Origin: a virus | UHGV virus genome: UHGV-0072595 | Direction: 5' to 3' (one strand) | DNA: 18,059 nt | Part shown: piece by piece, positions 3,569 to 17,226 of the stretch | How positions within the stretch are numbered: the stretch's first letter is position 1 | Layout: each line of letters begins with the position of its first letter | Made by a program: the position numbers and the translations under genes | Notes under the pieces: generated by a model | Database searches by the model: none | Seen by the model: only the letters and a program-made list of their open reading frames with translations | What the model was told of the DNA's origin: nothing

Positions 3569-3937
3569 TCAGGCGGCTTTGATAGTCATATCATCTGAAT
3601 CAAATATTCCTGATGTATCGATATCGGTAATTCTTATTCCTTCGCTACCATCCATTGGAGGCCATCCTTCCTGACCATTTCCATCATTCCAGTCGAACTC
3701 ACACACAACACCATATGCATTTAAGTCGCTTGAAATTGCTATAAGCAGAGCATGTTGCGCCAGCATGATTAATACAGCATTTAATACAGCGCCGTGTTTA
3801 TTGAGTCGGTATTCAGAGTCTGACCAGAAATTATTAATCTGGTGAAGTTTTTCCTCTGTCATTACGTCATGGTCGATTTCAATTTCTATTGATGCTTTCC
3901 AGTCGTAATCAATGATGTATTTTTTGATGTTTGACAT
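3569..3937 (-). CDS. ea10: Ea10 protein (lambda early-left, 122 aa)
   Basis: Track ORF; sequence and length match my recollection of lambda Ea10; located left of ral as in lambda. Confidence 0.8.
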   Translation of the reverse strand: MSNIKKYIIDYDWKASIEIEIDHDVMTEEKLHQINNFWSDSEYRLNKHGAVLNAVLIMLAQHALLIAISSDLNAYGVVCEFDWNDGNGQEGWPPMDGSEGIRITDIDTSGIFDSDDMTIKAA

Positions 3938-3957
3938 CTATTCATATCCTCACAGAT

Positions 3958-3983
3958 AAAAAATCGCCCTCACATTGGAGGGC
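3958..3983 (-). terminator. Intrinsic terminator-like hairpin (GCCCTC/GAGGGC stem) followed by a U-tract on the leftward transcript, between ral and ea10 (tL2-like)
   Basis: Plus strand shows an A6 run then gccctcacattggagggc; on the minus strand this is hairpin plus U-run. Confidence 0.5.
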
Positions 3984-4119
3984 AAAGAAGATTTCCAATA
4001 ATCAGAACAAGTCGGCTCCTGTTTAGTTACGAGCGACATTGCTCCGTGTATTCACTCGTTGGAATGAATACACAGTGCTGTGTTTATTCTGTTGTTTATG
4101 CCAAAAATAAAGGCCACCA

Positions 4120-4320
4120 TCAGGCAGCCTTGTTATTCTGTTTACCAAGTTCTCTGGCAATCATTGCCGTCGTTCGTATTGCCCATTTATCGACATATTT
4201 CCCATCTTCCATTACAGGAAACATTTCTTCAGGCTTAACCATGCATTCCGATTGCAGCTTGCATCCATTGCATCGCTTGAATTGTCCACACCATTGATTC
4301 TTATCAATAGTCGTAGTCAT
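4120..4320 (-). CDS. ral: Ral restriction-alleviation protein (66 aa)
   Basis: Track ORF MTTTIDKNQWCGQFKRCNGCKLQSEC...; matches lambda Ral as I recall it. Confidence 0.9.
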   Translation of the reverse strand: MTTTIDKNQWCGQFKRCNGCKLQSECMVKPEEMFPVMEDGKYVDKWAIRTTAMIARELGKQNNKAA

Positions 4321-4390
4321 ACGGATAGTCCTGGTATTGTTCCATCACATCCTGCGGATGCTCTTCGAACTCTTCAAATTCTTCTTCCAT
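4304..4390 (-). CDS. Small acidic ORF (28 aa, MEEEFEEFEEHPQDVMEQYQDYPYDYDY), lambda orf28-like, overlapping the ral start by 17 nt
   Basis: Hand translation of minus strand; same size and same overlap with ral as lambda orf28 by my recollection. Confidence 0.55.
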   Translation of the reverse strand: MEEEFEEFEEHPQDVMEQYQDYPYDYDY

Positions 4391-4398
4391 ATATCACC

Positions 4399-4725
4399 TC
4401 AAATAAGTGGTTTGCTGCCTAATTTCATTTTCTGGCGACCAACACAAGTCACCCCCATTTCACTGCGTGGCTTGCTGTACCATGTGCGCTGATTCTTGCG
4501 CTCAATACGTTGCAGGTTGCTTTCAATCTGTTCGTGGTATTCAGCCAGCACTGTAAGGTCTATTGGATTCAGTGCGCTTTCTACTCGTGATTTCGGTTTG
4601 CGATTCAGCGAGAGAATAGGGCGGTTAACTGGTTTTGCGCTTACCCCAACCAACAGGGGATTTGCTGCTTTCCATTGAGCCTGTTTCTCTGCGCGACGTT
4701 CGCGGCGGCGTGTTTGTGCATCCAT
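4399..4725 (-). CDS. N: Antiterminator N (lambda N-like; C-terminal residues differ slightly from my recollection of lambda N)
   Basis: Track ORF MDAQTRRRERRAEKQAQWKAANPLLVGVSAKPVNRPILSLNRKPKSRVESALNPIDLTVLAEYH... including the arginine-rich boxB-binding motif; downstream of nutL on the pL transcript. Confidence 0.9.
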   Translation of the reverse strand: MDAQTRRRERRAEKQAQWKAANPLLVGVSAKPVNRPILSLNRKPKSRVESALNPIDLTVLAEYHEQIESNLQRIERKNQRTWYSKPRSEMGVTCVGRQKMKLGSKPLI

Positions 4726-4914
4726 CTGGATTCTCCTGTCAGTTAGCTTTGGTGATTGGATGGCCGGCGCTGAACCCCGGCTTACTGGTTAGAGCGCCCG
4801 CACTACCAGTGACGCTGTCTTGAGGCGCAGATTGGTTACTGCTTGCCATGAGCGCTGTTTATACATTGGTCGAGCATCAGCCTGCTCATTCATCCAATCC
4901 CAAAGCCTTCTGCT

Positions 4915-14926: not shown

Positions 14927-15111
14927 ACGCCACAATTCAAACGATACCAGAGCTTCTTATCCAGACACGAGGCAATCAGACCGAAGTGGCTAGGATGCTT
15001 TCCTGCGCAAGAGGAACAGTGCTCAAGTACAACCGAGACAGCAAAGGCGATCGTCACGTAATAGTTAACGGCGTCCTGATGGTCAAACAGGGAAAGAGGG
15101 GAAGACGATGA
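14923..15111 (+). CDS. ninH: NinH-like protein (62 aa)
   Basis: Track ORF; ...GNQTEVARMLSCARGTVLKY... matches the NinH HTH-like core; ATGA overlaps on both sides. Confidence 0.75.
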   Translation: MNATIQTIPELLIQTRGNQTEVARMLSCARGTVLKYNRDSKGDRHVIVNGVLMVKQGKRGRR

Positions 15112-15626
15112 GCATAAGAGAACTAAACCTCACCAAAGAACAGCATGAGTGGCTGAATGGCTGGCTTGAACTGTGGGGCGCATGGGTTTATTCAGGTCGT
15201 CTGGAAAAGCGCATGAGCAGCGTAATAGCGAAGTTCATGGAGAGCGTAGAGCCGGGAAGAGTTATGACAAGGCCAATGTGTAATGATGATGATGGAATGT
15301 TGATTTCTCAGGTCGTCGATTCCGTCATGTACATTGACAAGAAAGCCTTTGGCATCCTCCTCAGCTACTACGCTCATGGTTCATCTAAGCGAGCAATTGC
15401 ATCCTACTATCACGCGACTGCAAAGCCACGCAAGATGTGTGGACGTGGTGGCGAGGGATGGAGAAAACCTTCACTGGCAACCTGTAGAAACGAAATTGAC
15501 GACATCCTGAAAGCGTCATTATTTGTTTTGTACCAACCAATGCAAAATGCTTTCAAAATGCGTAAACGTGTTGAGAAAGTTAAGCATGTTGCTGTTAAAA
15601 ACCTTGACATGCAATTAGCCATTTAG
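15108..15626 (+). CDS. Q: Late antiterminator Q (non-lambda type, 172 aa)
   Basis: Track ORF; last gene of the nin operon, immediately upstream of a pR'-like promoter, terminator hairpin and the lysis cassette; pattern WGAW...P.C.DDD resembles phage 21/82-type Q proteins (from memory). Confidence 0.7.
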   Translation: MSIRELNLTKEQHEWLNGWLELWGAWVYSGRLEKRMSSVIAKFMESVEPGRVMTRPMCNDDDGMLISQVVDSVMYIDKKAFGILLSYYAHGSSKRAIASYYHATAKPRKMCGRGGEGWRKPSLATCRNEIDDILKASLFVLYQPMQNAFKMRKRVEKVKHVAVKNLDMQLAI

Positions 15627-15633
15627 CCATAAT
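15604..15633 (+). promoter_or_regulatory. Candidate late promoter pR' (-35 TTGACA 15604-15609, 18-bp spacer, -10 CATAAT 15628-15633), overlapping the Q stop
   Basis: Hexamers read directly; position relative to Q and downstream terminator fits the lambdoid late-control architecture. Confidence 0.5.
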
Positions 15634-15644
15634 TAGAGGGTAAG

Positions 15645-15689
15645 CTGCCGTTAGTGACTCTTAAGTTGCAACGGTGGCTTTTTTTATTT
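15645..15689 (+). terminator. Terminator-like imperfect hairpin followed by a U-rich tract (TTTTTTTATTT), candidate tR'
   Basis: ctgccgtt...aacggtggc stem with G-U pairs and an extended inner stem, then U-tract, directly downstream of the putative pR'. Confidence 0.45.
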
Positions 15690-15764
15690 GGGTCAGTCGT
15701 ATAAAGGTCATTACGGAAGGCTGTTAACCTTCTTATCGTGGTTCGAGTCCACGCTGTCCCGCCA
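15690..15764 (+). tRNA. tRNA-Asn(GUU)-like gene with encoded CCA; atypical (one U-U mismatch in the acceptor stem, weak D-stem)
   Basis: Manual fold: acceptor GGGTCAG/CTGTCCC, anticodon stem GAAGG/CCTTC with loop CTGTTAA, T-arm CGTGG-TTCGAGT-CCACG, discriminator G, CCA. Confidence 0.5.
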
Positions 15765-15769
15765 AATAT

Positions 15770-15845
15770 GCTGGTTTAGCTCCAATGGTAGAGCAGTCGC
15801 CTTGTAAGCGAATGGGTAGCGGTTCAAGTCCGTTAACCAGCACCA
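15770..15845 (+). tRNA. tRNA-Thr(UGU) gene with encoded CCA
   Basis: Manual fold: perfect 7-bp acceptor GCTGGTT/AACCAGC, D-arm GCTC-CAATGGTA-GAGC, anticodon loop CTTGTAA, T-arm AGCGG-TTCAAGT-CCGTT, discriminator A, CCA. Confidence 0.65.
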
Positions 15846-16089
15846 TAACTGAGCCGTAGCCACTGGCTATCCTGAATTCATCAGTGATAGTTACGCTGCG
15901 GCCTTCTACACATGACCTTCGTGAAAGCGGGTGGCATGAGGTTGCGCTAACAACCTCCTGCCGTTTTGCCCGTGCATATCGGTCACGAACAAATCTGATT
16001 ACTAAACACAGTAGCCTGGATTTGTTCTATCAGTAATCGACCTTATTCCTAATTAAATAGAGCAAATCCCCTCAATGAAGGGGTAGAGC

Positions 16090-16293
16090 ATGTACCGTAT
16101 GGACAAAATCAGAGAATGGTTCAGTTACAGCTTCGGAGGACTGACTGCGATGGGTGGCATTCTCTCCCTGAATGACTGGGCTGTCATCATTGGTATTCTT
16201 TGTACTGTCGGCACATTTGGCATCAACTGGTACTACAAGCGCAAAGAGCGCGAGGACAGATTGAATGGCAATGTCACCGGCACTACGAAATAG
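16090..16293 (+). CDS. S: Holin, class II/pinholin-like, with dual-start motif (M-Y-R-M) predicting antiholin and holin forms
   Basis: Track [70 protein letters not shown]; two TM segments, charged C-terminus; immediately upstream of and overlapping the endolysin gene. Confidence 0.75.
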
Positions 16294-16768
16294 CGTAATA
16301 GCGGCGATAAGTGGCGGGGCTATTGCTATAGCATCTGTGTTAATCACTGGACCAAGTGGTAACGATGGCCTGGAAGGTGTCAGCTACATACCATACAAAG
16401 ATATTGTTGGTGTATGGACTGTATGCCACGGACACACCGGAAAAGACATCATGCTCGGTAAAACGTATACCAAAGCAGAATGCAAAGCCCTCCTGAATAA
16501 AGACCTTGCCACGGTCGCCAGACAAATTAACCCGTACATCAAAGTCGATATACCGGAAACAATGCGCGGCGCTCTTTACTCATTCGTTTACAACGTGGGT
16601 GCTGGCAATTTCAGAACATCGACGCTTCTTCGCAAAATAAACCAGGGCGATATCAAAGGCGCATGTGATCAGCTACGTCGCTGGACATATGCTGGCGGTA
16701 AGCAATGGAAAGGTCTCATGACTCGTCGTGAGATTGAGCGTGAAGTCTGTTTGTGGGGGAAACAATGA
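16265..16768 (+). CDS. R: SAR endolysin (T4-lysozyme-fold muramidase with N-terminal signal-arrest-release domain; phage 21 R-like)
   Basis: Track ORF; Gly/Ala-rich weakly hydrophobic N-terminus [21 protein letters not shown] followed by the lysozyme core; matches my recollection of R21. Confidence 0.85.
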
Positions 16769-17226
16769 GCAGAGTAACCGCGATTATCTCCGCTCTGGTT
16801 ATCTGCATCATCGTCTGCCTGTCATGGGCTGTTAATCATTACCGTGATAACGCCATTACCTACAAAGCCCAGCGCGACAAAAATGCCAGAGAACTGAAGC
16901 TGGCGAACGCGGCAATTACTGACATGCAGATGCGTCAGCGTGATGTTGCTGCGCTCGATGCAAAATACACGAAGGAGTTAGCTGATGCGAAAGCTGAAAA
17001 TGATGCTCTGCGTGATGATGTTGCCGCTGGTCGTCGTCGGTTGCACATCAAAGCAGTCTGTCAGTCAGTGCGTGAAGCCACCACCGCCTCCGGCGTGGAT
17101 AATGCAGCCTCCCCCCGACTGGCAGACACCGCTGAACGGGATTATTTCACCCTCAGAGAGAGGCTGATCACGATGCAAAAACAACTGGAAGGAACCCAGA
17201 AGTATATTAATGAGCAGTGCAGATAG
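16765..17226 (+). CDS. Rz: Rz i-spanin (153 aa)
   Basis: Track ORF 16753..17226 trimmed to ATG 16765 (ATGA overlap with endolysin stop); [49 protein letters not shown]...; lambda Rz. Confidence 0.95.
16985..17167 (+). CDS. Rz1: Rz1 o-spanin lipoprotein embedded in the +1 frame of Rz (60 aa, proline-rich)
   Basis: Track [63 protein letters not shown]; lipobox VVGC; matches lambda Rz1. Confidence 0.9.

Follow-up and report, generated by a model that had tools for sequence, protein, structure and literature searches.

In Stx phages, the interval that runs from the antiterminator gene Q past the tRNA genes to the holin gene S houses stx and other cargo. In the virus genome UHGV-0072595, the same interval ends in a spacer of 244 nt between a tRNA-Thr gene and the holin gene, and the initial annotation took this spacer for an untranslated and unoccupied cargo insertion point that could hold a small RNA. 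Using the whole stretch of 18,059 nt available for this genome (the window), we investigated what the spacer is. We found that it was best explained as the 5' untranslated leader of a lambda-type lysis cassette, which probably controls late-mRNA processing and holin translation in cis.

Locus layout and relatives of the spacer

The late region of the window is arranged entirely on the + strand, in the order Q, pR'-like promoter, terminator, tRNAs, spacer, holin, endolysin, and Rz. The spacer is on the late strand, between the Q-controlled promoter and terminator and the first lysis gene. The features of the region, including those predicted within the spacer, were as follows.

15108-15626, + strand: Q antiterminator gene (Pfam Phage_antitermQ, E = 1e-25)
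15604-15633, + strand: pR'-like late promoter (TTGACA, 18 nt, CATAAT; promoter scan, 11/12 matches)
15643-15689, + strand: putative tR'-like intrinsic terminator, stem AGCTGCCGTT/AACGGTGGCT followed by a T-run (assigned by reading the sequence)
15690-15764, + strand: tRNA-Asn (GTT) (ARAGORN; Rfam tRNA, 55.3 bits)
15770-15845, + strand: tRNA-Thr (TGT) (ARAGORN; Rfam tRNA, 61.5 bits)
15846-16089, + strand: untranslated 5' leader (the spacer) of the lysis cassette, 244 nt, homologous to lambda nt 44945-45181
15853-15902, + strand: predicted domain I hairpin (MFE -27.7 kcal/mol, z = -5.4)
15917-15989, + strand: domain II, an irregular hairpin of 73 nt (compensatory changes, covariance model, MFE)
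15938-15957, + strand: perfect 7-bp hairpin, the apical stem P4 of domain II (sequence, covariation)
15987-16027, + strand: predicted domain III hairpin (MFE z = -5.2)
16028-16059, + strand: A/U-rich linker between B and A' (23-32 nt across leader types)
16060-16069, + strand: A' (GAGCAAATCC), second complement of B (pairability in 78 distinct sequences)
16068-16083, + strand: SD-sequestering hairpin (CCCCT/AGGGG), positional equivalent of lambda sdi
16090-16293, + strand: class II holin gene, 67 aa, HP1 family, beginning M-Y-R-M (Pfam PF16080, E = 4e-21)
16265-16768, + strand: endolysin gene (Phage_lysozyme)
16753-17226, + strand: Rz gene

The pR'-like promoter overlaps the 3' end of the Q gene, and tRNA-Asn begins at the base directly after the tR'-like terminator. 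The hairpin of this terminator has a 17-nt loop, which exceeds the limit of the terminator scanner, and was hence absent from the scan output. The spacer is bounded by the end of tRNA-Thr at 15845 and by the holin ATG at 16090 and contains no conserved ORF, in agreement with its earlier description as untranslated.

BLAST aligned the spacer with the lambda late leader along its full length, at 95.4% identity over query positions 2-240 (window 15847-16085). The lambda match, nt 44945-45181 of J02459, ends 4 nt before the start of S at 45186; domain I corresponds to lambda 44951-45001 and domain II to 45016-45088. The homology starts two bases past the 3' end of tRNA-Thr, and no homology between lambda and the window was found on either side, before 15847 or after 16085. 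When 50,697 phage records were searched with BLAST, 191 matched the spacer, 129 of which were 95-99% identical and came from P22-, lambda-, Sf6-, and HK-type phages. SEN22, BTP1, Sf6, HK75, HK446, and lambda were among the phages with a matching spacer, and matches were seen in phages of Escherichia, Shigella, Salmonella, Klebsiella, and Enterobacter. BTP1 has a Q gene of 519 nt, a 464-nt gap with two tRNAs, a class II holin gene of 204 nt, and a spacer 96% identical to that of the window. The spacer was also present in 1170 of 5426 complete E. coli genomes, about one fifth, with a 100% match in E. coli KE40. It was almost always unannotated in these genomes, and a few records annotate a "hypothetical protein" across it. 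The leader is among the most widely shared non-coding stretches of lambdoid phages.

Partial BLAST matches broke at recurring points that divided the spacer into three blocks, namely query positions 1 to ~71 (domain I), 72-186 (domains II and III), and 187-240 (linker and SD hairpin). The identity of the block with domains II and III was 74% in P22, 80% in g341c, and 75% in an Enterobacter phage. Two pattern scans of IMG/VR yielded 221 true domain II loci. Domain I was present in 78 of them, always 16 nt upstream of domain II and with or without tRNAs (32 had the tRNA-Asn/Thr pair, the rest having no tRNA as in lambda), and was missing in the other 143, as in HK97 and P22. The content that varied between relatives was located upstream of the leader, in the stretch from Q/tR' to domain II. 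Domain II began 50-1040 nt past the preceding large ORF, and the sequence in between contained tRNAs, orf-64-like small ORFs, or nothing. In most of 213 loci, 91-117 nt separated the end of domain II from the holin start (up to ~200 nt in one family), and the leader was found with at least eight holin families and with upstream ORFs of 161-273 aa. A scan of 596 Gb of contigs (GGATTTGTTC, 20-36 nt, GARCARRTCC) was estimated to give ~150 chance matches; among the matches listed, which were filled with unrelated taxa, 10 were real, and 9 of these came from assemblies labelled as non-enteric taxa and resembled lambda DNA contamination. Judged by its sequence, the leader of the window is a further copy of the lambda-type lysis leader, and for annotation such a spacer should be recorded as an ordinary lambda-type lysis leader rather than scored as a vacant toxin or moron site.

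Predicted fold and covariation of the leader RNA

The fold of the leader is predicted throughout, and compensatory changes support two of its elements, domain II and the SD hairpin. The MFE of the whole spacer was -89.2 kcal/mol, versus -60.7 ± 4.5 kcal/mol in dinucleotide shuffles (z = -6.4, 0/200), and the z-scores of domains I, II, and III were -5.4, -3.7, and -5.2 respectively. The SD hairpin alone was not significant (z = -1.6), with 16 of 200 shuffles folding equally well. Domain I is predicted as a hairpin of ~20 bp (8 bp, an internal loop, and 12 bp with a bulge) that starts 8 nt after tRNA-Thr. No compensatory changes were seen in domain I, the variants being single-sided transitions only.

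Domain II consists of the helices P1 (15918-15924/15983-15989), P2 (15927-15932/15968-15973), and P3-P4 (15933-15944/15951-15962), closed by a loop at 15945-15950. The perfect 7-bp hairpin reported earlier was exact (gaggttg at 15938-15944, cgctaa, caacctc at 15951-15957), and it forms the tip of this larger hairpin of 25 pairs. A search for covarying RNA structure, which had been suggested as a check, was made on the 25-pair structure in an alignment (A2) of 110 distinct sequences, and it showed that the pairing of domain II is kept through compensatory changes. Standard pairs filled 93.0% of cells, versus 31-51% when the 3' partners were slid by 1-3 columns. Nine pairs had changed on both sides, the number of double-change cells being 146 versus 40.9 ± 11.3 in column shuffles (0/500), and the covariation score was 0.193, versus at most 0.073 for slid partners. 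Covarying pairs included columns 27-38 (UA in 55 sequences, CG in 45) and 28-37 (UA in 90, AU in 8). In three leader types (L129, L131, and L155) the sequence of the apical stem was fully replaced and still paired, for example CCGTAAGTTG with CAACTCACGG. G.U pairs were frequent, with 49 at columns 11-59, 47 at 14-56, and 64 at 16-54, and the covariance model built from A2 (R1) scored the window at 91.8 bits on the + strand versus 18.7 on the - strand. The many G.U pairs and the strand bias of the model indicated that the structured molecule is the + strand RNA.

The MFE fold of the window's own sequence returned all of domain II, and RNAalifold recovered the basal helix, most of P2, and three apical pairs, with columns 17-18 paired differently. 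No compensatory changes were found in helix P1 among the 110 sequences, and its invariance was partly imposed by the search patterns. Two positions of the apical stem were often mismatched, columns 21.43 (window 15937.15958) in 67 of the 110 sequences and columns 26.39 (window 15941.15954) in 42. A comparison of the spacer and its flanking tRNAs with Rfam, using the gathering threshold as well as E <= 10, returned nothing except the two tRNAs and a chance match of 12.9 bits to a CRISPR repeat. We assign the RNA structure in the spacer to the mRNA leader.

Predicted pairing before the holin, proposed role, and alternatives

The predicted domain III is formed by arm A (GAACAAATC, 15987-15995) together with arm B (GGATTTGTTC, 16018-16027), and 3 nt of arm A are shared with the 3' strand of P1. 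The 10-mer B was invariant in all 78 distinct downstream sequences, including loci collected with a search pattern that did not contain B. The linker that follows was conserved in sequence within leader types, not between types. It leads to A', of the form GA[A/G]CA[A/G][A/G]TCC, which is directly 5' to the SD hairpin and overlaps two of its C residues. All 10 positions of A' remained pairable with B in 76 of the 78 sequences, and the variants of A' were nearly all A-to-G changes, giving U.G pairs. Two alternative states are predicted, one with P1 and B:A' (state 1) and the other with domain III and an intact SD hairpin (state 2), such that B could pair with either of two mutually exclusive and about equally stable partners. 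When 136 distinct leaders were folded under constraints, the states differed by 1.6 ± 2.2 kcal/mol, and state 2 was the lower one in 112 of them. An A/B/A' switch is proposed from this thermodynamic prediction and a handful of independent substitutions.

The second hairpin described initially, CCCCT (16068-16072), CAATGA, and AGGGG (16079-16083), was also exact and, as had been noted, sequesters the SD of the holin: the G-rich Shine-Dalgarno sequence forms its 3' arm and is separated from the ATG by 6 nt. The arms of this hairpin covary between leader types (CCCC/GGGG, CCTCAC/GTGAGG, CCTCC/GGAGG, and CCCTCA/TGAGGG). It is followed by a holin with dual starts, Met1 (16090) and Met4 (16099), and dual-start motifs (such as MKM, MYRM, MFRM, MKNM, MNKM, and MKRM) were present in the listed starts of most holin families behind the leader. 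The 98-aa L134-type holin, which begins MANG, is a possible exception. In lambda and P22, sdi sets the ratio of antiholin to holin, as Blasi et al. reportedly found in 1989 and Nam et al. in 1990.

A cis-acting leader of this kind could work as follows. From the layout, it would be transcribed on the + strand only when Q permits readthrough of tR' and of the two tRNA genes, and the RNA would fold into three hairpin domains plus the SD hairpin. Excision of tRNA-Thr would create an mRNA 5' end only ~8 nt from domain I; this hairpin would cap and stabilize the long late mRNA, a role that may correspond to that of RNase III cleavage in lambda. No helix of ~20 bp is predicted in the spacer apart from domains I and II, which makes these two the candidates for the sites at which RNase III reportedly processes the late leader of lambda. 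Pairing of B with A would form domain III and keep the SD hairpin closed, pairing of B with A' would take two C residues from the SD hairpin, and the choice between A and A' would set initiation at Met1 (antiholin) versus Met4 (holin), thereby tuning the timing of lysis. Because the leader occurs independently of the type of Q and the type of holin, the element would have to act in cis through host factors, whichever Q or holin accompanies it. Processing of the late leader of lambda by RNase III is named in the title of Daniels et al. (1988), as cited in PMC7547250. Our searches of the full-text literature turned up no mapping of RNase III sites or terminators to lambda 44816-45185.

In a more elaborate form of this proposal, domains II and III, the A/B/A' segments, and the SD hairpin would constitute an undescribed, bistable family of leader RNAs that is absent from Rfam, and processing upstream would flip B and set the ratio of the antiholin start to the holin start. 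Excision of the tRNA, or an RNase III cut in domain I or II, would free the P1/A strand, B would flip between A and A', and the flip would open or close the SD hairpin, giving the lysis clock an input that depends on host factors across at least eight unrelated holin families. We regard this form as speculative and, on balance, doubtful. If the switch is real, an RNA-level input would be added to phage lysis timing.

The cis-acting leader was weighed against the possibility that the spacer is a recombination linker, i.e. a homology patch for swapping Q/tRNA and lysis modules that has no RNA function beyond the SD hairpin. Mosaic boundaries are sharp at 15847, ~15917, ~15946 (in the apical loop of domain II), ~16031, and 16085, and two chimeras, PhiR5_2 and the L134-type leader, break in the same apical loop. 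Diversity is high 5' of that loop and as low as that of S on its 3' side, and recombination may have left the frequent mismatches of the apical stem as scars. In 124 lambda-type loci, minor-allele frequencies of at least 8% between 15917 and 16072 occurred only at 15928, 15932, 15937, 15942, 15943, and 15958. In the 77 loci that carry lambda S, π was 0.005 for the leader 3' of domain II versus 0.0056 for S, and 0.039 for domain II. Purifying selection was rejected as a reading of this invariance within the clade, as the 3' part of the leader was no less diverse than S, and its near-invariance in the lambda-type clade could be due to hitch-hiking. For this reason the case for function rests on covariation between clades. 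P2-P4 were kept by compensatory changes across lineages that are at most 74-80% identical, the apical stem being wholly different in some, the G.U pairs show a strand bias, and most loci keep the distance to the holin start within narrow limits. A homology patch needs none of these three properties, which therefore count against a linker, and we consider it unlikely that the spacer is nothing else.

Another possibility is that domain I, and perhaps domain II, is a back-up transcription barrier that stops polymerase not modified by Q, when it has leaked past tR' or emerges from the tRNA genes, and so silences the lysis genes in the lysogen. After the GC-based hairpin of domain I comes CTTCTAC in the window, CTTTTAC in lambda, and TCTTCTTTTTCT in SfI. 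In lambda-type leaders GTTTTG follows the P3-P4 stem, and in PhiR5_2 a clear terminator stands just ahead of the holin. Luk and Szybalski reportedly described tandem terminators of the late operon of lambda in 1983. However, the terminator scan returned no + strand terminator in 15400-16400, the U-tract after domain I is weak in the window (CUUCUAC), and a convincing T-run was seen only in SfI. The GUUUU after P3-P4 is an internal loop within the covarying P2 and is replaced by UGAUCU or AUCUU in other leader types; with its U-run an internal loop that is not conserved, domain II was rejected as a terminator. The combination of a GC-rich hairpin and a U-tract that defines an intrinsic terminator was thus not found in the spacer, and a barrier function seems quite unlikely.

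The suggestion that the spacer could hold a small RNA was right in that a conserved RNA structure is present. A trans-acting sRNA would be a stable fragment with domains I-III, released to regulate host or phage genes, and the domains are indeed predicted to be very stable and compact. Such cargo is known from the Q-to-S interval of Stx-type prophages, for example STnc100 in PhiR5_2 and the Pas sRNAs; Pas and STnc100 sRNAs adjoin esterase-holin-lysozyme genes there (bioRxiv 10.64898/2026.05.13.724894), and the pR'-tR' transcript StxS is a further example (PMC7547250). Against this, the spacer had no promoter- or terminator-like match on the + strand and no match to an Rfam family at E <= 10, so that neither an own promoter and terminator nor a described family marks it as an sRNA gene. 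The distance to the holin start is fairly fixed, as expected of a cis element, and an RNA encoded downstream of tR' would be absent from lysogens. A trans-acting sRNA is accordingly a very improbable reading.

The idea of a vacant cargo (moron) site equivalent to the stx locus fared still worse. It had its origin in the use of the Q-tRNA-S interval for stx and other cargo in Stx phages, and in one record, PhiR5_2, the first ~100 nt of the spacer are joined to 3.7 kb of cargo. The absence of a toxin or other cargo gene from the spacer was confirmed, with neither a conserved ORF nor a known sRNA family present. However, the colinearity with cargo-less phages that had been named as evidence against such a site was exactly what we found: the spacer aligned base for base with lambda 44945-45181, and it is colinear with hundreds of other phages and prophages that lack cargo. 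No insertion inside the spacer was found among the 221 related loci. The stretch from the tRNAs to the holin contained neither an accessory gene nor an sRNA, occupancy of this exact point did not vary among relatives, and no repeats or att-like features were seen on reading the sequence of the spacer. PhiR5_2 was the only record with a junction to cargo. It has, in order, a tRNA relic, domain I, and the 5' half of domain II up to a breakpoint in the apical loop, and then two to three STnc100 sRNA copies (Rfam, 130-139 bits) and CP-933V-type ORFs, which we take to be Stx-phage late-region cargo. After the cargo come its own terminator and a holin annotated as S that begins MYQMEK, presumably of the Stx-phage type; the 3' half of domain II, domain III, B, and A' are missing. 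This single known junction cuts the apical loop of domain II, which it destroys, rather than using a dedicated site. It is highly improbable that the spacer is a vacant cargo site.

Model R1 found no domain II in PhiR5_2 or SfI, and since both manage without domains II and III, the leader element is not essential for lysis-gene expression. To our knowledge, Stx phages in general also lack these two domains. The Q-to-S interval is thus a real cargo zone in the Stx-type lineage, and the window has a lambda-type leader there and no cargo.

The initial annotation was correct that no ORF with an SD occupies the spacer, although two mechanical ORFs do exist inside it, one of 50 aa on the + strand (15884-16036, GTG start) and one of 28 aa on the - strand (15906-15992). 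No conserved coding gene, the other finding named as adverse to a cargo site, had been missed. The 50-aa ORF, across which lies the "hypothetical protein" of a few records, was rejected as a small protein gene, and the chance that it is one is negligible: only 44 of 154 distinct homologous versions carry it intact, most of the others (including lambda) lack its start codon, stops occur at many positions along with frame-shifting indels, and it has neither an SD nor a Pfam match.

Comparison with known systems

The likely function of the leader, by inference, is cis control of late-mRNA processing and holin translation. The analysis has yielded a 73-nt hairpin structure supported by covariation, an invariant 10-mer with two alternative partners, and a calibrated covariance model, for a leader that is almost never annotated and has no Rfam model and whose fold (domain II and A/B/A') appears uncatalogued. 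Combined with the older lambda observations of RNase III processing in the late leader and control of S by sdi, these lead to specific, testable mutations.

In Stx-type phages the Q-to-S region carries tRNAs, stx, the nanS-p esterase, and the STnc100, Pas, AgvB, and AsxR sRNAs. The window shares the interval and has its tRNAs right after tR' in the same way, but differs in having no cargo gene or known sRNA family, and it lacks the terminator of its own that PhiR5_2 has before S.

Domains I and II resemble the RNase III hairpins of the T7 R1.1 type, the lambda N-leader, and the lambda late leader, in that they are irregular helices of ~20 bp with internal loops in an untranslated phage leader; they are candidate substrates only. 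Domain I is further comparable to the 5' stem-loop stabilizers of the ompA kind, being a stable hairpin ~8 nt from what we expect to be the processed 5' end. As a 5' stabilizer hairpin it would differ in being missing from HK97- and P22-type leaders.

The late leader of lambda (nt 44945-45185) has other surroundings than that of the window. In lambda the leader follows orf-64 and ~130 nt of other sequence, and in the window it follows two tRNA genes. Lambda has the class I holin S, whereas the window has an unrelated class II holin of 67 aa, and the 172-aa Q of the window is encoded by a gene without nucleotide homology to the lambda Q region. Within domain II, the pair 15937.15958 is G-C in lambda and U.C in the window. 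Upstream of domain I, lambda has a cloverleaf-like sequence ending in CCA that is suggestive of a tRNA relic, in which ARAGORN and Rfam detect no tRNA. Both leaders have the same position, after pR'/tR' and directly before the holin, and in both an SD-sequestering hairpin is followed by two in-frame starts (S107/S105 in lambda) separated by a basic residue.

Late promoter, terminator and terminator-like matches

In the late region of the window, around 15640-15690, only about 45-50 nt separated the late promoter from its terminator, so a pR' transcript ending there would have very little length. The first base of tRNA-Asn came immediately after the T-run of the late terminator, so a promoter dedicated to the tRNA genes would not fit between them. 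When 15400-16400 was inspected for terminator-like matches, the only one found lay on the minus strand, where the SD hairpin (16083-16068) runs into ATTTGCTCTA. Since one such match was observed versus 1.1 expected by chance, it was probably meaningless.

Variation within domain II of the leader

We found that diversity in the untranslated leader between tRNA-Thr and the holin gene was concentrated in domain II (15917-15989), at positions 15937 and 15958 together with 15928, 15932, 15942, and 15943, while the rest of the leader was invariant. Across 124 lambda-type loci, position 15937 carried G (61 loci), A (41), or T (22), and position 15958, which faces it, carried C (82) or A (42); mismatches between the two were frequent. 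No site in 15959-16072 reached a minor-allele frequency of at least 8% in the lambda-type loci.

The subgroup of loci resembling locus L134 retained domain II, segment B (16018-16027 in the window), its alternative partner A' (16060-16069 in the window), and the SD hairpin. In the apical stem of its domain II, the 5' strand derived from one leader type and the 3' strand from another, and pairing between them was lost. About 85 nt of extra hairpins were inserted between the SD hairpin and the holin gene (in L134, some 85 nt upstream of the ATG of the holin), and the encoded holin was 98 aa, without an obvious dual start.

In a pattern scan of contigs, the lambda leader and the start of the S gene were found identical or nearly identical to lambda in L244, L246, L282, L294, L300, L308, L326, L330, and L347, among the matches listed. 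These assemblies were labelled Pseudomonas sp. 30_B and Veillonella sp. R32, or as metagenome-assembled Chromatiales, Pseudomonadales, Cellvibrionaceae, and Bacillota, and the leader in all nine most likely represents lambda DNA contamination.

Possible tRNA relics and leader arrangements in related phages

The following features were located in lambda (J02459), PhiR5_2, and SfI.

Lambda 44862-44944: cloverleaf-like multiloop in the RNA fold, a short way upstream of where homology to the window begins
PhiR5_2 3930-4000: putative tRNA-relic segment
PhiR5_2 320-394 and 421-505: isrK and C4 antisense RNA matches, 5' to ninB
PhiR5_2 4146-4339, 4375-4550, and 4615-4824: STnc100 sRNA copies (Rfam RF02076)
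SfI 2501-2618: arrangement around domain I, described below

The predicted lambda multiloop was closed by GUUGUGCUG/CAGCACAAC and ended 3' in CCA, and a T-arm relic, GGTTCGATTCC, was clearer in PhiR5_2 and HK75 than in lambda. Neither ARAGORN nor Rfam called these features as tRNAs; they may represent degenerate tRNA genes in the place where the window carries tRNA-Thr.

The domain II breakpoint of PhiR5_2 immediately preceded the STnc100 copies, two of them strong (138.7 and 129.9 bits) and one weak (30 bits). In SfI, TCTTCTTTTTCT came after tRNA-Thr and domain I, the holin gene lay no more than about 60 nt further on, and domains II and III were absent. Domain I of SfI looks like a real intrinsic terminator, and the holin gene behind it is annotated as similar to the holin of prophage DLP12.
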